50,334 bases of DNA, taken from assembly GCA_034722055.1 (NCBI GenBank), contig JAYENL010000010.1, forward strand, positions 1 through 50,334. Reading direction: 5' to 3'. A program made the position numbers and the translations under genes. This DNA is from Armatimonadota bacterium (GTDB lineage: Bacteria > Armatimonadota > Zipacnadia > Zipacnadales > UBA5352). Position 1 is the first letter of the stretch, and each line of letters begins with the position of its first letter. Shown here one piece after another: positions 4,813-32,036 of this stretch. The notes under the pieces are model-generated. The model was given only the letters and a program-made list of their open reading frames with translations, searched no databases and had not been told where the DNA came from.

Positions 4813-5538
4813 CTACGCGGCTACCCCGTCTTCTCCGCTATCGTCGGGGTGGGGCTCGAAGCGGTAGCCCACGGAGCGGATGGTGATGATGTGCCTGGGA
4901 TTGCGACCGTCCTCCCCCAGCTTCTTCCGCAGGCGGCCGATGTGCACGTCGAGGGTGCGCGTCCTGACATCAGGCGGATAGCCCCACACGTCCTGCAGGA
5001 GGTCCTCGGAGGCCATGACCTCGCCGGCGTGGCGACCGAGTGTCCACATTAGCTCCATCTCCATGGGCGTGAGCTCCTCCGCCCGGTCGCCGACGGTAAG
5101 CGTGTGCGCGTTCCGGTCGATGACGATGTCGCCGAAGTCAAGGACCCCGCCGTCGCCGTCCCGGGAGTCGACCCCCTCGGCCCGTCGGAGCGCGGCCTTC
5201 ACGCGCTCCTGAAACTCCGCGCCGTCGCATGCCGAGCCCACGAAGTCATCCGCGCCCAGCTCCAGAGCCAGCACGCGGTCGGTGCCAGTGGCCCGCTCCC
5301 CGAGCACGATGAGGGGCACGTCGCTGGTGCGTCGGAGGCGGCGACAGACGTCGAATCCATGCAGGTCGGGGAGGTCGAGGCTCACGACCACCAGGTCGGG
5401 ATCGGCCTCGCCTTGAAGCTGCAGGGCGTCCGAGCCGGTGGCCGCCCGCTGCACGCGCAGGTCCAGAGCCTCCAGGCGCTGTTGGAGCTCGGCGGCGCGG
5501 TCTTGGTCGTGTTCGGCGAGGAGGACGGAGGGCGGCAT
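4813..5538 (-). CDS. OmpR/PhoB-family response regulator with atypical receiver domain
   Basis: Receiver-like LELGADDFV and intact winged helix (LTPMEMELM...VWGY...RTLDVHIGRLRKKL...TIRSVGYRF); the phosphoacceptor position reads DLVVVSLDLP. Confidence 0.92.
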   Translation of the reverse strand: MPPSVLLAEHDQDRAAELQQRLEALDLRVQRAATGSDALQLQGEADPDLVVVSLDLPDLHGFDVCRRLRRTSDVPLIVLGERATGTDRVLALELGADDFVGSACDGAEFQERVKAALRRAEGVDSRDGDGGVLDFGDIVIDRNAHTLTVGDRAEELTPMEMELMWTLGRHAGEVMASEDLLQDVWGYPPDVRTRTLDVHIGRLRKKLGEDGRNPRHIITIRSVGYRFEPHPDDSGEDGVAA

Positions 5539-5589: not shown

Positions 5590-5617
5590 GTATCCGCCCG
5601 GCAGCCCGCCGCCTTTA
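5590..5617 (-). promoter_or_regulatory. sigma28-like promoter upstream of the response regulator
   Basis: TAAA-N16-GCGGATAC on the minus strand. Confidence 0.5.
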
Positions 5618-5716
5618 GGGGGCGACCAGCGTGATGCGCCGACCTGGCAGGGAGAATCCAGCTAGATGTCACGGCGAGCCGCTGACCTGGAACACCGCTC
5701 TTCGTGGGCCACGGCC

Positions 5717-5988
5717 GGCAGCATCCAGATGCGTGCCCCAGCGCCGGGGAGCAGACTGTCGGAATGCCGGTGGTAGTCGAGGAGGGGCCGCCTGAGGCTC
5801 CAGCGTGGTTTCCTGGAGCCGAAGCCGGCCCGGCCCTTCGCCGTTCGGAGGAGCGCCTCGCGACGCTGTCTCGTGGGGGTCGCGGGCCGGCTTCGTCGCG
5901 CATAAAGGGCATGCGCTCCTCAGGCGGCCCCTCCGCGGGCATCGGCGGCGTCGGTACAGAGGACAGGCACACGAATCTGGATGCTGCC
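5717..5988. mobile_element. MITE-like non-autonomous element, copy 1
   Basis: Terminal inverted repeats GGCAGCATCCAGAT / ATCTGGATGCTGCC; flanking direct repeat GCCACGGCC (5708-5716, 5989-5997); closely similar inverted copy at 9450-9723. Confidence 0.88.
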
Positions 5989-6004
5989 GCCACGGCCGCC
6001 CGTC

Positions 6005-6033
6005 TTGCCCGCGGCCCCCACCCGTGATACACT
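6005..6033 (+). promoter_or_regulatory. sigma70-type promoter of the dehydrogenase gene
   Basis: TTGCCC-N17-TACACT with a TG extended -10. Confidence 0.6.
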
Positions 6034-6086
6034 CGCCGCCAAGCATCGATGTTCGGTGTGCCGGGTTTGCGGCTGAAGGAGCGAGG

Positions 6087-7070
6087 ATGATGACCGAGCC
6101 GGTGAAGACCGTTCACGTGGGGCTGGGGCCGATCGGGCTGGAGATCCTCAAGGCCGGCGTGCGCGCGCAGGTCTGTCAGCCAGTGGCCTGCGCGGACCTC
6201 TCCCCCGAGATCGCGGGCCGCTCCCTGCGCGCGGTCGCCCAGGAGCAGGACCTGCCGGCGGTCACCATTTGCGCGGAGCTGCCCGCCGCCATCCGGCAGG
6301 GCGTGGAGGCCGGAGCGGCCGTTGCGGTCGTGTGCACCGGCTCGCACCTGGAGGGGATCGAGGCGCAGCTCGAGGCGGCGCTCGCCGGCGGCCTCCACTG
6401 CATCTCCACCTGCGAGGAGCTGGTCTTCCCGTGGCTGCGGGCAGCCACCGCCGCCGACCGCCTGGATGCCCTGGCGGTGGAAAACGACGTGGCCCTGCTG
6501 GGCGCGGGGGTCAACCCCGGGTTCGTGCTGGACCTGCTCCCCTTCGCCCTCACGCGCGTGTGTGAAAGCGTGGATTCCGTCTACGCGGGCCGCTTCGTGG
6601 ACGCTACGCGCCGCCGCCGACAGCTTCAGGCGAAGATCGGCGCCGGCATGTCTCCCGACCAGTTCCGGGCCGAGGCTGCTGAGGGGACCATCGGCCACGT
6701 CGGGCTGGCCGAGAGCGCTGCGCTGGTGGCGGACTCACTGGGCTGGCAGTGGGAGGAGTTCGAGGAGGTCATCGACCCGGTGGTGGCCCAGGAGCCCGTC
6801 GCCACAGAGCACTTCGACGTGCGGGAGGGGCAGGTCCGGGGCCAGGCGCAGACCGTGACCATGGGCGACGTTCGGCTGGAGCTGACCTTGGCGCTGGGTA
6901 CCGAGGATCGCGACGAGGTGCGCATCGAGGGTCGGCCGCCGGTGCACGCAGTCATCCAGGGTGGCATCCACGGGGACACCGCCACAGCCGGGACGGTCAT
7001 CAACCTGCTCCGACCGCTGACACGCGCCGATCCTGGCCTCCGGACCGTGACGGAGGTACCGCTTGGCTAA
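6087..7070 (+). CDS. NAD(P)-dependent amine dehydrogenase family protein (2,4-diaminopentanoate dehydrogenase / dihydrodipicolinate reductase-like)
   Basis: Rossmann motif VHVGLGPIG; ISTCEEL, GVNPGFVLD, GHVGLAES and GGIHGDTAT motifs; AAGGAG RBS. Confidence 0.85.
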   Translation: MMTEPVKTVHVGLGPIGLEILKAGVRAQVCQPVACADLSPEIAGRSLRAVAQEQDLPAVTICAELPAAIRQGVEAGAAVAVVCTGSHLEGIEAQLEAALAGGLHCISTCEELVFPWLRAATAADRLDALAVENDVALLGAGVNPGFVLDLLPFALTRVCESVDSVYAGRFVDATRRRRQLQAKIGAGMSPDQFRAEAAEGTIGHVGLAESAALVADSLGWQWEEFEEVIDPVVAQEPVATEHFDVREGQVRGQAQTVTMGDVRLELTLALGTEDRDEVRIEGRPPVHAVIQGGIHGDTATAGTVINLLRPLTRADPGLRTVTEVPLG

Positions 7071-7210
7071 CGTCAGATAACATCAGAGAACGGCAGATCA
7101 CGTCAGACAACGGCAGATAACGGCAGAGAACGGCAGACAACGGCAGATAACAGCAGAGAACGGCAGATAACAGCAGATAACAGCAGAGAACGGCAGATAA
7201 CGGCAGACGA
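7071..7210. repeat. tandem array of 14 decamers, consensus CGGCAGA(T/G/C)AA
   Basis: Strict 10-bp period starting right after the stop at 7070, between convergent genes. Confidence 0.95.
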
Positions 7211-7251
7211 CACCAGCGAATGGCAGGAACGACCGGAGGCGGGTGCGGGCG

Positions 7252-7752
7252 TCAGGCTCCCTGCGCAGCGGCGTCCGTGCGGAGGCGCTCGGCCACCGCC
7301 GCCGTGCCGAAGGCCTCCGCGAAGGCCACTACCGCCCAGAAGGCCAGCTCCAGCAGCGTGAGGACCACCGGCTCGCCGAACATGTTCAGCGGCGTGAAGA
7401 ACTCCCAGAACAGGTACACCAGAGCCCAGATCAGCGCCCCGAAGCGCAGCGCTCTGGGGACCACACCCGCCGGCCAGCCCCGCGACAGCCACAGGTAGAT
7501 CCACGCCCGCACCACGGACAGGCCAATCGCGCCCAGGCCCATCAGGACCGGATGGGTGACCACTCGCGGAAGCGGCTGCAACTCCGTCCACACCCCGATG
7601 AGCTTCCGGCTCTGGACGGCTGGGTCCAGCAGGATGCCCTCGCCGGTGAGCGCCATCCCCAGCACCCGGAAGGTCAGCAGCATCGCCAGGTTCGCCATGA
7701 CGCCGCCGGTGACCCCGGCGGCGACGGCGGTCGTTACTCCGCGACGGTCCAT
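7252..7752 (-). CDS. hypothetical integral membrane protein (~4 TM)
   Basis: Four hydrophobic segments; GAGGTG RBS before the ATG. Confidence 0.75.
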   Translation of the reverse strand: MDRRGVTTAVAAGVTGGVMANLAMLLTFRVLGMALTGEGILLDPAVQSRKLIGVWTELQPLPRVVTHPVLMGLGAIGLSVVRAWIYLWLSRGWPAGVVPRALRFGALIWALVYLFWEFFTPLNMFGEPVVLTLLELAFWAVVAFAEAFGTAAVAERLRTDAAAQGA

Positions 7753-7771
7753 CTTTCCGGCACCTCGTCCG

Positions 7772-7783
7772 CTGACCAGTCAG
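7772..7783. promoter_or_regulatory. palindromic operator-like site CTGAC-CA-GTCAG
   Basis: Perfect 5-2-5 palindrome 20 nt upstream of the 7752 start; resembles TetR-type boxes. Confidence 0.3.
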
Positions 7784-7851
7784 TGTGGGCGCTGCCGGAG
7801 TCTCCTCTCTCTTCTCTCTCGGGGAGCAGCGTCCGGCTCAGGGCGGCCGGA

Positions 7852-8703
7852 CTACTCAGCGTGGGCCCGCGCCGGCACGCGCTCGTTCCACTCCGCGGTG
7901 GCGTACTTCTCAGCCTCCAGCGCCACCGCCTGTCGCCGCTCGGCCTCCGAGAGGTCCCGGCGGTCAAGCTCCACCCCGAACGCCTCCGCGAAGCCGGCTA
8001 CGATGGCCTCGGCCATCTCCTCGAAGCTCACCGGGCGGCCAAGCAGGTCCGTCACGCTCATGGCCGCGCCGGCCAGCACCTGCCGGGCGATGCGCTCATC
8101 GGCGCCGGGCATCACCGCGATCTGATCCTCCAGGTCGATGGTGATGGGGATCGACCCGTGCTGCAGGATGCCGCCGCCCCGGCGCACCTGGGCGCTGCCG
8201 ACGACCTTCCGGCCGGCGGCCTGCAGATCGCAGCCCGCGGTCTTCGCGAAGCAGATCGGCCGGGCGGCATCGGCGCCGGTGGCCGGCTCTTGAGCCTGCC
8301 GCCGATCGCCGTCGCCGCCCAAGCTCACCTCCGCGCCCAACAGCTCCAGGCCGGCAATGATCCCGCGGGAGATCTCCCGGTAGGACTCCATCACCGAGTG
8401 CCCGCCGGCGATCTCGTCCTGGCGGATGCAGAAGCTGTAGGTGAGCTCATCAGCGTGCAGGATCGCCCGCCCGCCTGTGGGCCGGCGCACAATGTCGTAG
8501 CCGCGCTCGCGCACGGCGGTGCGGTCGATGCCCTCATCCAGCTCCTGATGGTAGCCCAGCGACACGGCTGGCGGTCGCCAGCCGTAGAGCCGGAGCGTAG
8601 GTGGCGCCTCGCCGCGGGCCACCGACTGCATGATGGCCTCATCCACCGCCATGTTGCGGAAGCCGCTGGCGTAGCCGCTTTCAATGATGCGCCAGGCGGT
8701 CAT
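7852..8703 (-). CDS. lipoate-protein ligase / octanoyltransferase (LplA/LipM family)
   Basis: NMAVDEAI, PTLRLYGW..PAVSLGYHQ, VRRPTGGRAILH, CF, GRKVVGSAQ and LQHGSI motifs; single catalytic domain like LipM. Confidence 0.92.
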   Translation of the reverse strand: MTAWRIIESGYASGFRNMAVDEAIMQSVARGEAPPTLRLYGWRPPAVSLGYHQELDEGIDRTAVRERGYDIVRRPTGGRAILHADELTYSFCIRQDEIAGGHSVMESYREISRGIIAGLELLGAEVSLGGDGDRRQAQEPATGADAARPICFAKTAGCDLQAAGRKVVGSAQVRRGGGILQHGSIPITIDLEDQIAVMPGADERIARQVLAGAAMSVTDLLGRPVSFEEMAEAIVAGFAEAFGVELDRRDLSEAERRQAVALEAEKYATAEWNERVPARAHAE

Positions 8704-8789
8704 GCCATCACCTCATATGAAACGAGCCGGCCGCAACGACGGCCGGCCCCCGGCTCACGCTTGGCTTTCTTCTGTGAGTGTCTGGCCGC

Positions 8790-9203
8790 TCAGAACTCCT
8801 CGTCCTCGTCGCGCGCGCCCTCGAGCCCGTCAAGGTAGTCCTCGTACTCATCCTCGCTCATGAGGTTGTCCAGCTCCGAGGGGTCCTCCAGCCTGACCTC
8901 CATCAGCCAGCCGTCGCCGTAGGGGTCCTGATTGATCAGCTCCGGGGCGTCGAGGACCTCCTCGTTGACGCGGATGATCTCCCCGCTGGCGGGGGCGAGC
9001 AGGTCCTCCACGGACTTCACGGACTCCACCGTGCCGCAGGCGTCGCCGCGGATGATGGCGGTGCCCTCCTCGGGCATCTCCGCGAAGATGATCTCGCCCA
9101 TCATGTCCTGAGCGTAGTCGGACATGCCTACCACCGCCAGGTCACCGTTCTCCAGCCGCACCCACATGTGGCCCTCGTCGAACTTCAACTCCCCGGAACT
9201 CAT
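8790..9203 (-). CDS. gcvH: glycine cleavage system H protein (lipoyl carrier)
   Basis: HMWV, VGMSDYAQD, VESVKS (lipoyl-Lys) and PELINQDPYGDGWL motifs; GAGGAGG RBS. Confidence 0.95.
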   Translation of the reverse strand: MSSGELKFDEGHMWVRLENGDLAVVGMSDYAQDMMGEIIFAEMPEEGTAIIRGDACGTVESVKSVEDLLAPASGEIIRVNEEVLDAPELINQDPYGDGWLMEVRLEDPSELDNLMSEDEYEDYLDGLEGARDEDEEF

Positions 9204-9325
9204 CGTGTGCCTCCTCGCTGCGTGCTGCCCACGGCCTCAGCGCGGGCATGGATCACATGCATGGAGCGGCCAGAATCTGCAATTCGAGGCCGCGTCGAAG
9301 CACCGTCTCCGCGGCGCCGCCCCAC

Positions 9326-9354
9326 ATATTAGGCGAGGGCCGCAGCCCTGTCAA
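9326..9354 (-). promoter_or_regulatory. sigma70-type promoter of the gcvH operon
   Basis: TTGACA-N17-TAATAT on the minus strand. Confidence 0.75.
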
Positions 9355-9449
9355 CCAGCCGCCGGAAATGAGGCCGCAGCGGTCTGCCGGGCCGTCGGCT
9401 GGCAGGTACGGGCGCTGCGCGCCTGGCGACCGCTGCAGCAAGGTACGCG

Positions 9450-9723
9450 GCAGCATCCAGATTCATGTGCCTGTCCTCTGCAGTGACGCCGCCGATGCCC
9501 GCGGAGGGGCCGCCTGAGGAGCGCATGCCGTGTATGCGCGACGAAGCCGGCCCGCGACCCCCACGAGACAGCATCGCGAGGCGCTGCTCCGAACGGTGAA
9601 CGGCCGGGCCGGCTTCGGCTCCAGCAAACCACGCTGGAGCCTCAGGCGGCCCCTCCTCTACTACCGGCATTCCGACAGTCCGCTCCCCGGCCCTCGCGCT
9701 GGGCACACGAATCTGGATGCTGC
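9450..9723. mobile_element. MITE-like non-autonomous element, copy 2 (inverted relative to copy 1)
   Basis: 22-bp TIRs GCAGCATCCAGATTC(A/G)TGTGCC (21/22 match); direct repeat AAGGTACGCG at 9440-9449 and 9724-9733. Confidence 0.92.
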
Positions 9724-9739
9724 AAGGTACGCGGGCGAT

Positions 9740-9768
9740 TTGACTTTGCTGGGGGGCTGTGTTAGGCT
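9740..9768 (+). promoter_or_regulatory. sigma70-type promoter of the DUF151 gene
   Basis: TTGACT-N17-TAGGCT with a TG extended -10. Confidence 0.7.
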
Positions 9769-9969: not shown

Positions 9970-10440
9970 ATGGTTCGGATGAAGGTCCAGCGGGTGGGCA
10001 TCGACCCCAGCAGGCATGCACTGGTGATCCTCGCGGACGACGAGGAGCGGCGCCTGCTGCCCATCCTCATTGGCCTGTTCGAGGCTCAGGCCATCGCCAT
10101 GGCCATCAGTGGGGAGGACATCGGGCGGCCGCTGACACACGACCTGCTGCTGTCGGTGATCGAGGAGCTCGGCGGGCAACTGGAGCGCATCGAGGTCACA
10201 GAGCTTGCAGAGAAGACCTTCTACGCCCTGTTGCACGTGGAGTGCAATGGCAAGACCCTGCAGATCGATTCCCGGCCGTCGGACGCCATCGCACTGGCGC
10301 TGCGGGCCGAGGCCCCCATCTATGTGGCGGAGGAAGTCCTGGCGGATGCCCAGGTGATTGACGAGGACGTGGAGGAGGACGTCGAGAAGTTCAAGGACCT
10401 GCTGGATAAGGTGGATCTCGACGACGACCGGTCCGAGTAG
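9970..10440 (+). CDS. bifunctional nuclease family protein (DUF151/BFN)
   Basis: LPILIGLFEAQAI, RPLTHDL, TFYA and IDSRPSDAIALALR motifs; GGAGGA RBS. Confidence 0.93.
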   Translation: MVRMKVQRVGIDPSRHALVILADDEERRLLPILIGLFEAQAIAMAISGEDIGRPLTHDLLLSVIEELGGQLERIEVTELAEKTFYALLHVECNGKTLQIDSRPSDAIALALRAEAPIYVAEEVLADAQVIDEDVEEDVEKFKDLLDKVDLDDDRSE

Positions 10441-15721: not shown

Positions 15722-16741
15722 ATGCGGCAGCGGTTCCCGGTGGGGAAGCTGGAGCCGGAGCTGCTGGCCGAACTGCTGGGGAGCCTGCACATCGATGACC
15801 CGGCGGTGATCGTGGGACCCGGCGTCGGTCGGGACGTGGCGGTGCTGGAGTGGGGCCAGGGAGACAGCTACCTCATCGCCAAGACCGACCCCATCACCTT
15901 CGCCACCGACGAGATCGGGCACTACGCGGTGAGCGTCAACACCAACGACGTGGCAACCAGCGGCGGCCTGCCCCGCTGGTTCCTGGCCACGCTGCTGCTG
16001 CCCGACGAGGACAGCGATGAGACGCTCGTCCGCACCATCTTCAAGCAGATCGACGAGGCCTGCCGGGAGATGGACATCGCCCTGGTGGGAGGCCACACCG
16101 AGGTCACCTACGACCTTGGTCGCCCCATCCTGGTGGGCCTGATGATCGGTGAGGTGGAGAAGCGGAACCTGGTCACCAGCGATGGCGCGCAGGTCGGCGA
16201 CCGGCTGCTGCTGACCAAGCGCGTGGCGGTGGAGGGCACCGCCATCATCGCCCGGGAGATGGGTCAGGAGCTGATCGACCGGGGCTTCGATGAGGAGACG
16301 GTGCAGCGGGCCGCCGCGATGCTGCACGATCCCGGCATCAGCGTGCTCGCTGAGGCCCGGGCGGCCGTGAGCGCCGGCGAGGTGCACGCCATGCACGATC
16401 CCACTGAGGGCGGCGTTGCCACCGGCCTGCACGAGCTGGCCATCGCCAGCAGCACGGGCATCCAGGTCGCGCACGATCAGATCCCCTTCTACCCCCAGAC
16501 GCAGGGCTTCTGTGAGGCGCTGGGCATCGAGCCTCTGGGACTCATCGGCTCCGGGTCGCTGCTGATCGCAGCTCCGCCCGAGGACGCTGAGCGCATCATC
16601 GACGCCATTCGCGAGAGGGGCGTGGAGTGCGCGGACATCGGCGAGGTGGTGGAGGAGGCGAAGGGCATCATGATCCGCCGCGGCCTGGACTGGTTCGATC
16701 TCCCGCGCTACGATCAGGACGAGATCGCGAAGCTGTTTTGA
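15722..16741 (+). CDS. AIR synthase-related (PurM/HypE superfamily) protein
   Basis: GKL, VGPGVGRDVAV, KTDPITFA, VNTNDVAT.GG.PRW, VGGHTEVT and AMHDPTEGG motifs. Confidence 0.9.
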   Translation: MRQRFPVGKLEPELLAELLGSLHIDDPAVIVGPGVGRDVAVLEWGQGDSYLIAKTDPITFATDEIGHYAVSVNTNDVATSGGLPRWFLATLLLPDEDSDETLVRTIFKQIDEACREMDIALVGGHTEVTYDLGRPILVGLMIGEVEKRNLVTSDGAQVGDRLLLTKRVAVEGTAIIAREMGQELIDRGFDEETVQRAAAMLHDPGISVLAEARAAVSAGEVHAMHDPTEGGVATGLHELAIASSTGIQVAHDQIPFYPQTQGFCEALGIEPLGLIGSGSLLIAAPPEDAERIIDAIRERGVECADIGEVVEEAKGIMIRRGLDWFDLPRYDQDEIAKLF

Positions 16742-16749
16742 AGCAGCCG

Positions 16750-16952
16750 CAAGCGGCAAGCTACAAGCTGCAAGCTAACAGCGGACAGCTATCAGCTATC
16801 AGCGGACAGCTATCAGCGCACAGCTATCAGCTATCAGCGGACAGCTATCAGCTATCAGCAGACAGCTAACAGCTATCGGCGGACAGCAAACAGCTATCAG
16901 CGGACAGCAAACAGCTATGAGCGGACAGCTAACGGCCAACGGCGAACAGCTA
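16750..16952. repeat. tandem heptamer array (~29 units; CAAGCNN then CAGCTAT/CAGCGGA/CAGCAAA variants)
   Basis: 7-bp periodicity directly visible after the stop at 16741. Confidence 0.95.
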
Positions 16953-17071
16953 CGGACGAACACCTACCCCGGATTACTCGCGTAGGTCGGCCTGCGACTG
17001 GTGGTGCCTGTCAGGCGCAGGTGAGAGCGCGCTGCGCTCTCAGCTTTCAGCTCGACACCCGTGTGTCACCG

Positions 17072-17191
17072 TGGAGGGGCCGCCGCGAGCGTAGCGAGCG
17101 GGCAAGCTGTGGAGGCGGGAAGAGGCGCGCAGGCGCCTCCGGGGTGAGCTCGCGAGCAAAGCGAGTGAGCTCACAGGTTCCACCCCGGCCC
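17072..17191 (+). repeat. REP-like composite unit (left partner of 18212-18290)
   Basis: TGGAGGGGCCGCCGCGAGCGTAGCGAGCG (17072-17100) ... CAGGTTCCACCCCGGCCC (17174-17191). Confidence 0.8.
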
Positions 17192-17232
17192 ATCGAGGCT
17201 GAGGCTGTTTCGCAACGCATGGAAGCGGCTGT

Positions 17233-17256
17233 GTCGGGCAGGGATGCCCGACCTAC
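17233..17256 (-). repeat. GTAG-type REP palindrome
   Basis: Reverse strand GTAG-GTCGGGCA-TCCC-TGCCCGAC; a partial inverted partner CGCGTAGGTCGG lies at 16979-16990. Confidence 0.7.
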
Positions 17257-17357
17257 GCGGGGTCATGGAACGCGCTGTACAGTAACCGCGGAAACGACGA
17301 ACGGCGGAGCAGCGAACTTCGCCGGCTGTGAAGCCGTCTCGGGCTTCGGTGATATCC

Positions 17358-18191
17358 ATGCGGACGCTCAGATCAGCTCTACTCGCCCTTGTGCTCCTGA
17401 CGACCGCCTTGGGGTGTCTGGCGCAGCCGCCGTCGGTGACGGAGGCGCAGCCCTTCACCTTCGCGGTGTTCGGCGACTGCCGGCCGGGCAACGCGGACTA
17501 CAGCCCGATTCTGGAGGCCTTCGCCACTGAAGTCGGGGGTCTGGACGTGCCCTTCGTGATCGGGACCGGCGACTACATCGAGGGGTCCACCAACCAGTCC
17601 ACGGTCCGTGGCCAGTGGGAGGGCTTCTTCGCCGGGCTGGCCCCGTTGCAGGCCCAGCGAGCCATCCCCGTGGCCCTCGCCCCCGGCAACCACGACATCG
17701 TGGGCGTGCGGCGCAACGCGGAGATCTTCATCGAGCACTTCAAGCGCCTCTACTTCTCCTTCGACCACGAGGGCTGCCACTTCGTCATCCTCAACAGCGA
17801 GACCGTCGGCTCGGAGGGACGACTCTCGGAGACGCAGCTCACCTGGCTGAAGCAGGACCTGGCGGAGAGCCAGGACGCGAGGTTCACCTTCGTGGCCCTG
17901 CACCGGCCCCTCTTCCCGGTGGACGGGCACGTGGGCTCGTCCATGGACGCCCACCCCGCCGAGCGGGATGCCCTGCACCGGCTGTTCGTCGAGGCCGGCG
18001 TGGACTGCGTCCTCGCCGGCCACGAGCACCTCTACAACCACCAGCAGAGGGACGGCATCCACTACTTCATCACCGGTGGCGCCGGCGCGCCGCTCTACGC
18101 CGAGCCGGCGCGGGGCGGCTTCTACCACTACCTGCTGGTCTCTGTCGGCGACGAGGACTTCACCGTGCAGGTGCAGCGGATCACTCCCTGA
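17358..18191 (+). CDS. secreted calcineurin-like metallophosphoesterase
   Basis: Signal peptide; FGDCR, GTGDYI, PGNHD, ALHRP and AGHEHLY motifs. Confidence 0.93.
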   Translation: MRTLRSALLALVLLTTALGCLAQPPSVTEAQPFTFAVFGDCRPGNADYSPILEAFATEVGGLDVPFVIGTGDYIEGSTNQSTVRGQWEGFFAGLAPLQAQRAIPVALAPGNHDIVGVRRNAEIFIEHFKRLYFSFDHEGCHFVILNSETVGSEGRLSETQLTWLKQDLAESQDARFTFVALHRPLFPVDGHVGSSMDAHPAERDALHRLFVEAGVDCVLAGHEHLYNHQQRDGIHYFITGGAGAPLYAEPARGGFYHYLLVSVGDEDFTVQVQRITP

Positions 18192-18211
18192 GCTGCCCGG
18201 CCGCCGAGGCC

Positions 18212-18290
18212 GGGCCGGGGTGGAACCTGGGAGGTCCGTCGCTGCGCTCGGGACCTCCCACCGCTCGCTTCGCTCGCGGCGGCCCCTCCA
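18212..18290 (-). repeat. REP-like composite unit (inverted partner of 17072-17191)
   Basis: GGGCCGGGGTGGAACCTG is the exact reverse complement of 17174-17191; CGCTCGCTTCGCTCGCGGCGGCCCCTCCA matches 17072-17100 at 28/29. Confidence 0.8.
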
Positions 18291-31896: not shown

Positions 31897-31943
31897 CGCA
31901 CGTCACCTGGCCGAGACTCCCCGCCTGCAAGCCAGGTAAGTGC

Positions 31944-31969
31944 TGGGGCGCGGGCGCCCTCGCCCGCGC
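31944..31969 (+). repeat. REP-like palindrome between convergent genes
   Basis: GCGCGGGCG-CCCT-CGCCCGCGC; the 18-mer at 31950-31967 recurs inverted at 49041-49058. Confidence 0.7.
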
Positions 31970-32036
31970 GTTCTACCGACACTTGGAATCCGCGCCCGAG
32001 CGCCACGGCGGCGCGGCATCGCTTCGACCGCGTGAG

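Follow-up and report, generated by a model that had tools for sequence, protein, structure and literature searches.

How Mutator-like transposases of bacteria find promoters has been a question since TnGBS. In the parts of Guerillot et al. (2014; PMC3942029) drawn on here, p-MULT elements insert with a peak 16 bp upstream of the -35 box of sigmaA/70 promoters and generate target duplications of 8-9 bp; the enzymes carry a C/D(2)H motif after the second D, the inverted repeats (IRs) measure 18-39 bp and have a terminal C, and contact of the TnGBS transposase with the RNA polymerase initiation complex was put forward as a hypothesis. Here we examine a 50,334-nt stretch of DNA from an Armatimonadota bacterium (assembly GCA_034722055.1, contig JAYENL010000010.1, positions 1 to 50,334 of the forward strand; 'the window' denotes this whole stretch), which harbours two copies of a miniature transposable element with inverted repeats (MITE), each located next to a predicted sigma70 promoter. 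The MITE is very probably a non-autonomous derivative, targeted to promoters in trans, of an insertion sequence (IS) of the ISKra4 family taken broadly (p-MULT 4 side, UPF0236).

As presented in that portion of PMC3942029, the ISKra4 group (ISKra4, ISDesp4, ISTvi1, ISCasp2/3) includes 13 elements that have near-perfect IRs and insert next to promoters with either end, some of them frameshifted and some non-Firmicute, and the criterion applied to the group was that, on both sides, more than 20% of the junctions have a sigma70 promoter at 13-17 bp. The system described here resembles this group in its UPF0236 DDE transposase with DxxH, in G-terminal terminal inverted repeats (TIRs) within the group's range of 18-39 bp, in a duplication of 8-9 bp about 16 bp upstream of the -35 box on either side with near-perfect IRs, and in the occurrence of frameshifted members and of members outside the Firmicutes. 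It differs in that the element is non-autonomous and that the candidate enzyme scores below the NCBIfam cut-off and falls outside the ISCasp3 clade in three trees. In the promoter-targeting table rows covered, the group reaches 20-50% of junctions, as compared to 70% of sites here, the promoter rules being different; counted by junctions, 15/40 ends lie at 15-17 nt in our case, on both sides. The ISLre2/TnGBS group (p-MULT 3) likewise shows, in the same part of the source, the 16-bp peak upstream of the sigmaA -35 box, a duplication of ~9 bp and the proposed polymerase contact, whereas its insertions are oriented with the right IR at the promoter and are found chiefly in Firmicutes; in the present element, left and right ends face promoters equally often (8/8). 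The ISAzba1 group (ISKpn19, ISEc51, ISSysp7) shares some catalytic-region motifs (VDGGYVR, ISSA..EQTV) and lies on the same side of a branch as the cognate enzyme in two out of three trees, but has 0 promoter junctions in rows 1-24 of 31 and a long stem, and its grouping with the cognate enzyme is not kept in the third tree. Finally, the transposases of the ISMich2 group are also split by a T-run -1 frameshift, but in the rows covered those elements measure 1.2-1.8 kb, are cyanobacterial and do not target promoters, and by our reading of the table they have a short ORF A.

The basic phenomenon of promoter targeting is already published (2014). The original prediction, which was made from the letters of the window alone, took the behaviour to be known from the Firmicutes; this part is superseded by the promoter-targeting ISKra4-group elements from Chloroflexi, Cyanobacteria and Proteobacteria that are included in the covered part of PMC3942029. 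New here are the non-autonomous derivative, an enzyme branch of unsettled placement outside the ISKra4-group references, the apparent absence of an aspartate discussed below, and an inner unit resembling repetitive extragenic palindromes (REPs). Within the available portion of Table S1 of PMC3942029, the term 'MITE' is absent and the TIR of the element was not found, the sequence cells holding only the first 400 characters; the covered text of a 2024 review of prokaryotic MITEs (PMC10969869) mentions neither these families nor a promoter-targeting MITE. Literature searches at the level of listings, with ISfinder and TnCentral outside their scope, yielded no report of a promoter-targeting MITE of the ISKra4 family. 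ISfinder, TnCentral and reviews are said to describe ISKra4 derivatives.

Element family and promoter distance

The two window copies are 91% identical and inverted relative to each other. With ends drawn symmetrically, the features are as follows.

5717..5988, + strand: MITE copy 1, 272 bp; ends at 5717 (left) and 5988 (right)
5708..5716, + strand: target duplication of copy 1, left copy, 9 bp
5989..5997, + strand: target duplication of copy 1, right copy, 9 bp
5717..5739, + strand: left TIR of copy 1, degenerate, with a 7-nt deletion relative to other copies
5966..5988, - strand: right TIR of copy 1, 23 bp; matches 23/23 with the right TIR at a frameshifted ISKra4-family IS end in genome G012, and is also carried by G007:C56
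6005..6033, + strand: predicted sigma70 promoter, site 1, TTGCCC (6005)-N17-TACACT (6028); 16 nt from the right end of copy 1
9449..9724, - strand: MITE copy 2, 276 bp, in opposite orientation to copy 1; ends at 9449 (right) and 9724 (left, T variant)
9441..9448, + strand: target duplication of copy 2, first copy, 8 bp (9 bp with 9440 and 9724 counted)
9725..9732, + strand: target duplication of copy 2, second copy, 8 bp
9740..9768, + strand: predicted sigma70 promoter, site 2, TTGACT (9740)-N17-TAGGCT (9763); 15 nt from the left end of copy 2

The original prediction of two independent, TIR-bounded insertions with different target duplications is confirmed where it had placed them, and the gene map bears out that both sit in divergent intergenic regions. 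The ends of copy 1 remain at 5717-5988, while those given for copy 2 (9450-9723) move to 9449-9724; the duplications, previously left at 8-10 bp, resolve to 9 and 8 bp for these two copies, and the distances to the unchanged promoter sites shift from 17 and 16 nt to 16 and 15 nt, respectively. As is typical of a MITE, the element is short and non-coding, has TIRs and target duplications, and is present in many interspersed copies. TAnnnT is absent from both strands of the two window copies; no -10-like hexamer lies inside the element. The whole element is predicted to fold strongly (z -7.8), largely via its own inverted repeats, and Rfam gave no match to it above the gathering score, two weak chance-level matches both lying outside.

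The genome to which the window belongs (G000; 6.14 Mb, 68% GC, 330 contigs, 93% complete) yielded 43 TIR-like matches, of which three (on contigs C29, C106 and C110) were dropped because the inward sequence is not that of the element. The remaining 40 ends represent 15 two-ended copies and 10 single ends, the latter mostly at contig edges. Element length is 208-282 bp, ~275 bp in the window, with a TIR of 23 bp. All right ends (20/20) terminate in GCTGCC, whereas the terminal base of the 20 left ends is G in 10, T in nine and C in one case. T-ended copies form two weakly supported clusters in the element tree; hence, the variant base belongs to the element. Measured against the p-MULT repeats, the element thus has a 23-bp TIR, a duplication of mostly 9 bp and a terminal base conserved at 20/20 right and 10/20 left ends. 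Of the 20 left ends, 11 have an exact 9-bp duplication and a further one has 9 bp with a single mismatch, while window copy 2 has 8 bp and another copy 10 bp. The duplicated 9 bp lack a sequence motif. Three of these pairings join different contigs, and after re-pairing of ends by their duplications we count at most 23 distinct insertion sites. Asymmetric ends with a 10-bp duplication were considered and rejected, because with symmetric ends the duplication is 9 bp and the mode 16 at left and right ends alike, and because the mismatches gather at the base beside the left end. The left flank of one copy (G000:C288:30516-30793) pairs with C197 and its right flank with C101, reflecting either an assembly chimera or recombination between copies.

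Promoters were scored as TTG-N19-21-TAnnnT, corresponding to a spacer of 16-18 nt. This pattern is present 15-18 nt away from 16 of the 40 ends and hence at 16/23 sites, with offsets of 15 nt (twice), 16 nt (ten times), 17 nt (three times) and 18 nt (once). Enrichment of -35 boxes at the other copies had been named by the original prediction as a check, and it is indeed observed, with a mode of 16. Eight left and eight right ends face a promoter, but never both ends of one copy. The background for a 3-nt window, far below the 16/40 ends observed, amounts to 0.00016 per random flank and 0.0015 when the same flank is shifted. Moreover, a REP-like intergenic repeat of the same genome has the pattern at 14-18 nt in 0/642 ends, which excludes a plain intergenic bias. 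It is conceivable that insertion is roughly random between genes and that selection retains the copies that spare promoters, the targets including housekeeping genes, where promoter-disrupting insertions would be purged, and some sites lacking the pattern. This scenario appears highly improbable, as selection would yield a threshold rather than a 3-nt peak (2/40 ends at 19-45 nt versus 16 at 15-18 nt), and the REP-like repeat, although equally intergenic, shows no such accumulation. Genes downstream of the sites include those for tRNA-Ser and tRNA-Pro as well as ileS-, rimP-, pnp-, fabZ- and yebC-like genes, as read from translations. The consensus of 39 landing sites is TTGACa-17-gtGg-TAtAaT, in which TTG and TAnnnT reflect the selection rule; these sites supply a sigma70 consensus for an uncultured Armatimonadota class.

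Related genomes provide empty sites. The promoter of site 1 is present without the element in three of five relatives (G001, G010, G003) and absent from G007 and G002, where the region is rearranged, whereas the promoter of site 2 is kept without the element in all five; no TIR adjoins these conserved promoters in relatives lacking the element. In G001, a member of the same genus, synteny extends over the genes on either side of copy 1, with an alignment gap of 22 nt instead of 373. The search for empty sites that the original prediction had suggested thus succeeded, and its claim that the insertions left the promoters intact is supported, since both predicted promoters are whole and conserved in relatives. 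Judged by this conservation, both putative promoters predate the insertions. A consensus promoter scanner passed neither of them, each scoring 8/12 at a cut-off of 9.

The matching insertion sequence in related genomes

A frameshifted ISKra4-family IS carrying the TIR of the MITE occurs in genomes of the same family (Ca. Zipacnadia), so that an autonomous partner with the same or related TIRs is available in the relatives G007, G012, G005/G010 and G002. An ISKra4-family gene on contig C52 of G002 lies in two frames round a T6C run and terminates in a related TIR (16/23), which precedes a tRNA promoter. On G007:C142, a left end (20/23) is followed by an ORF A that is 45% identical to ORF A of G002 and has the same T6C run. 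The C-terminus of the transposase is directly followed by the MITE TIR on G012:C276 (23/23) and G007:C56 (0 mismatches), and in G005 and G010 both TIRs are linked to parts of ORF A, of ORF B and of the C-terminus within a deletion derivative of 601 bp. Overall, TIR identity to the MITE reaches 20-23/23 for the frameshifted IS ends of G007 and G012 and for the right end of the G005 derivative. The IS ends of G007 are ~110 nt away from contig edges, as expected for a collapsed multi-copy IS, and five of eight are located 15-16 nt from a full promoter (left 3/5, right 2/3). At both of its ends the MITE is similar to the IS right end, in agreement with two-sided insertion. The IS on G002:C52 carries a tandem duplication of its final 10 nt (L030:1309-1328), the outer copy stopping 16 nt before the tRNA promoter.

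ORF A (98-105 aa) has a four-cysteine zinc finger and, scored separately, reaches 32.3 bits with the ISKra4 profile. The best NCBIfam family for ORF B is ISKra4 (NF033572) with 151.6 bits, which is below the cut-off of 205; ISLre2 scores 89 bits. ORF B of G002 matches PF06782 above cut-off, and its DDE triad and DxxH align at D1, D2, DxxH and E with the named references. The original prediction had called for a search for an IS256, ISLre2 or ISKra4 (UPF0236) transposase bounded by the same TIR, and an ISKra4-family IS of this kind is found, in relatives rather than in this assembly; PF00872 (IS256) gave no match in the genome. A Mutator-like (UPF0236) DDE enzyme acting in trans, as had been predicted, is retained, whereas the assignment to the ISLre2/TnGBS group gives way to ISKra4 (152 versus 89 bits for ORF B). 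A search for the cognate enzyme across species genomes returned only the record of G002. We conclude that an enzyme of the frameshifted lineage very probably moved the copies described here; in G000, the cognate IS is either unassembled or lost.

The same targeting is observed where only the TIR is shared. A 21-nt TIR pattern (up to three mismatches) occurs in 12/18 genomes of the family, with 0 for the reversed control. G007 alone has 112 matches, of which we analysed the first 40 of the list. These elements are MITEs of ~170-180 bp with the same TIR and an unrelated body. A full promoter is located 15-18 nt away at 22/40 loci, mostly at 16 and 17 nt, and 34 end pairs show duplications of 9 bp in 23 cases, 8 bp in four, 10 bp in one, 11 bp in one and none in five. 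One end of this G007 MITE begins with GAGAGC rather than GGCAGC and faces promoters less often (4/23 promoter-facing ends), providing a natural test of end asymmetry. Separately, another, independent MITE, which has related TIRs and is flanked by a 9-bp duplication, is found on G002:C20, where it lies upstream of the orthologue of the gene next to copy 1. The exact TIR was also detected at two loci in metagenome contigs (L118:1209-1229 and L119:1801-1821) that share one flank; these contigs contain no second end and no transposase nearby.

An intact ISKra4 element on contig C213 (285 bits) is the sole p-MULT transposase found in the assembly, and it adjoins a TTGACT box at 15 nt with a 9-bp duplication. 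Cross-mobilisation of the MITE by this element would agree with these features and with the TCCAGATT core that its TIRs have in common with the MITE, inside whose left end a degenerate C213-type TIR is located. Nevertheless, we regard it as improbable: the TCCAGATT core is shifted by 2 nt, TIR identity is 8/23 and 4/23 as compared to 20-23/23 for the frameshifted IS, and the C213 element has MITE families of its own, B and C, with a peak at 15-16 nt. The C213 ISKra4 explains these two families. In family B, 4/7 ends are located 15-16 nt from a promoter; for family C the counts at 14-17 nt are 5/24 and 10/50, the latter including family B ends. One end of a family C MITE (~110 bp, C213-like TIRs, copies on many contigs) lies in the window at ~31900-31997 on the - strand.

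Enzyme placement and the proposed ruler

Trees were built on ORF B only, and ISMich2 references were not among the sequences; the closest relatives of ORF B are also ORF-B-sized pieces. In all three trees ORF B falls outside the clade formed by ISCasp3 and the C213 enzyme, ISCasp3 being the one named ISKra4-group reference. Two trees place it on the ISAzba1 side (support 97; 98/95), whereas it forms the deepest branch in the third tree, which has an Anoxybacillus ISLre2 root. Approximately unbiased (AU) tests rejected neither joining with the ISKra4-group clade (p 0.054) nor with the ISAzba1 clade (p 0.098). Thus, the cognate enzyme has no settled subgroup because of long branches and the single named ISKra4-group reference. 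In the available part of PMC3942029, an aspartate conserved just upstream of domain N2 (between N1 and N2) is the proposed targeting signature. Going by the text of that paper, this residue presumably corresponds to the D of PLDE (D117 of C213); this D does not vary among 38 homologues and is lacking in three ISAzba1 references. In the frameshifted lineage the putative aspartate directly follows the frameshift, and it is kept in G002.

Several observations weigh against an ISKra4-type MITE that is targeted in trans. First, 7/23 sites in G000 lack the pattern at 15-18 nt, two of them having a promoter at 30 and 32 nt and one at 11 nt, and 18 of the 40 analysed loci in G007 lack it as well. Second, the promoters are predictions backed by conservation. 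Third, tblastn and blastn of this assembly recovered only the C213 ISKra4, with no cognate transposase and no piece of the cognate IS. Fourth, a programmed -1 frameshift at the T6C run is putative, being deduced from the two reading frames. Finally, the putative aspartate is apparently missing in four of the five cognate-clade sequences that cover it: the replacements are PLQG in G007:C142, PLPP in the G005 derivative and PLAG in P0049, and by eye it is also absent in G010:C89; two of these four sequences are degenerate copies, and the multi-copy IS of G007 is not assembled across the motif.

For a targeted MITE of this kind, the following scenario may be envisaged. The transposase, split by the conserved T6C run, would be made via a -1 frameshift and act in trans on the MITE, both ends of which would derive as copies of the right TIR of the IS. 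A 9-bp staggered cut would place the promoter-nearest end 16 +/- 1 nt upstream of the -35 hexamer, that is, at about -52 to -44, thereby keeping the core promoter and displacing DNA beyond about -52 with its upstream activator sites. As the TIRs are near-identical, either end can face the promoter. Later elements would land between an earlier element and the promoter, which would create head-to-head junctions with spacers of 8-9 nt. Indeed, chromosomal head-to-head IR junctions with spacers of 8-9 nt are found on C213, G007:C142, G007:C32 and G021:C61. In the covered portion of PMC3942029, p-MULT transposition is described to involve a circular intermediate with an IR-IR junction and a spacer of 6-10 bp. 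On G000:C213 (L001:139-1639), the ISKra4 element sits between a family B MITE end and the promoter, with a head-to-head IR junction. Targeting would thus operate in trans on gene-less elements that come to rest and pile up at housekeeping promoters, which are thereby separated from regulatory DNA further upstream.

The ruler is probably promoter-bound RNA polymerase, contacted via sigma region 4 or the C-terminal domain of the alpha subunit, rather than direct reading of the promoter, because variable -35 boxes are nearly always accompanied by a correctly spaced -10 box: TTG is present at 16-17 nt in 18 ends, and 16/18 also have TAnnnT at a spacer of 16-18, and the -35 boxes differ among sites (TTGACA, TTGCCC, TTGCGC, TTGAAA). 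It is less likely, albeit to be taken seriously, that the same enzyme acting on the same element itself reads the promoter, i.e. the -35 box, the DNA shape or the -35/-10 pair, with no role for RNA polymerase. TTG at -35 is a fixed feature, some ends have TTG and lack a matching -10 box (18 versus 16), and the aspartate proposed for protein contact looks dispensable in the cognate clade. However, the frequent presence of TAnnnT would be rare if TTG alone were read, the -35 boxes vary, and the scatter of the distance is about equal for both boxes (SD, i.e. standard deviation, 0.99 to -35 versus 1.06 to -10), so that neither anchor is favoured. A complex prediction for the C213 transposase with sigma70 region 4 scored 0.02 without controls and provides no evidence either way.

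More tentatively, the cognate enzymes could represent a deep p-MULT branch apart from both ISLre2/TnGBS and the ISKra4 group, which shares the 16-nt geometry and includes active members devoid of the signature aspartate. If so, promoter homing would be ancestral across p-MULT 3/4 and lost in ISAzba1, targeting would depend on a surface distinct from the predicted motif, and MITE landing sites would constitute a native promoter map for an uncultured class. In any case, the 23-bp TIR with its matching enzyme, the dozens of natural sites with their sharp 16-nt peak and the natural variants of the predicted signature residue make up a compact test system for promoter finding by RNA polymerase-guided or other routes.

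The inner REP-like unit and neighbouring genes

Both window copies contain an inner palindromic unit of 154 bp, with strand not assigned.

5781..5934: internal palindromic unit of copy 1, inverted GGAGGGGCCG arms
9503..9656: the counterpart of this unit in copy 2, likewise with inverted GGAGGGGCCG arms

The 9-nt core of the unit occurs 808 times in the genome versus 424 for the reversed control, often in inverted pairs 100-270 nt apart, and in 14/17 genomes of the family. It is found within 900 nt of 5/6 Y1 (HUH) transposase genes, with inverted doublets on both sides of two, as compared to a background of 0.15 for at least one core per 2.1 kb. This large family of GGAGGGGCCG-arm repeats flanking Y1 genes is probably a REP system of the class, with its REP-associated tyrosine transposases (RAYTs); the REP/RAYT label for the unit is a tentative one. 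Like REP/RAYT repeats, the unit is a palindrome rich in hairpins and belongs to a family located beside Y1 transposase genes, but unlike them it is carried inside a DDE-type MITE; it reads as REP-like cargo. In principle, the element could have spread as a REP-like repeat via a RAYT-type Y1 HUH transposase, the outer arms being incidental, in keeping with the origin of the inner 154 bp from a repeat family that flanks these genes. This is extremely improbable: target duplications are located at the outer TIRs, free REP-like ends show no promoter bias, and the G007 MITEs combine the same TIRs and targeting with an unrelated body, which largely refutes such a route. Further GGAGGGGCCG-armed palindromic repeats are located in the window at 25-206 and 17073-18289 and on G000 contigs C193, C100, C256, C61 and C30.

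The genes next to the two copies are the following.

6087..7070, + strand: 2,4-diaminopentanoate dehydrogenase-like gene, downstream of site 1 (PF19328; under the NCBIfam Ord cut-off)
4813..5538, - strand: OmpR-type response regulator gene, divergent, far side of copy 1
9973..10440, + strand: bifunctional nuclease domain gene, downstream of site 2 (PF02577)
8790..9203, - strand: gcvH, divergent, far side of copy 2

The sequencing runs in which the window is contained bear the label brine metagenome. In four sets of DNA contigs, all of one study, no joint across either element and thus no empty site in that population was found, which proves nothing. Upstream of the response regulator gene, at 5590-5618 on the - strand, the motif CT(A/C)AAG-N15-(G/C)C(G/T)(G/C)ATA(T/C) is kept in 5/5 relatives and occurs twice in the genome; we take it to resemble a sigma28-type promoter. 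A near-consensus TTGACA-N17-TAATAT for gcvH is located at 9326-9354 on the - strand, ~95 nt from copy 2, and is not a promoter of the fixed-distance type. Finally, intergenic tandem arrays of 10-bp and 7-bp units are present in the window at 7049-7248 and 16717-16966.

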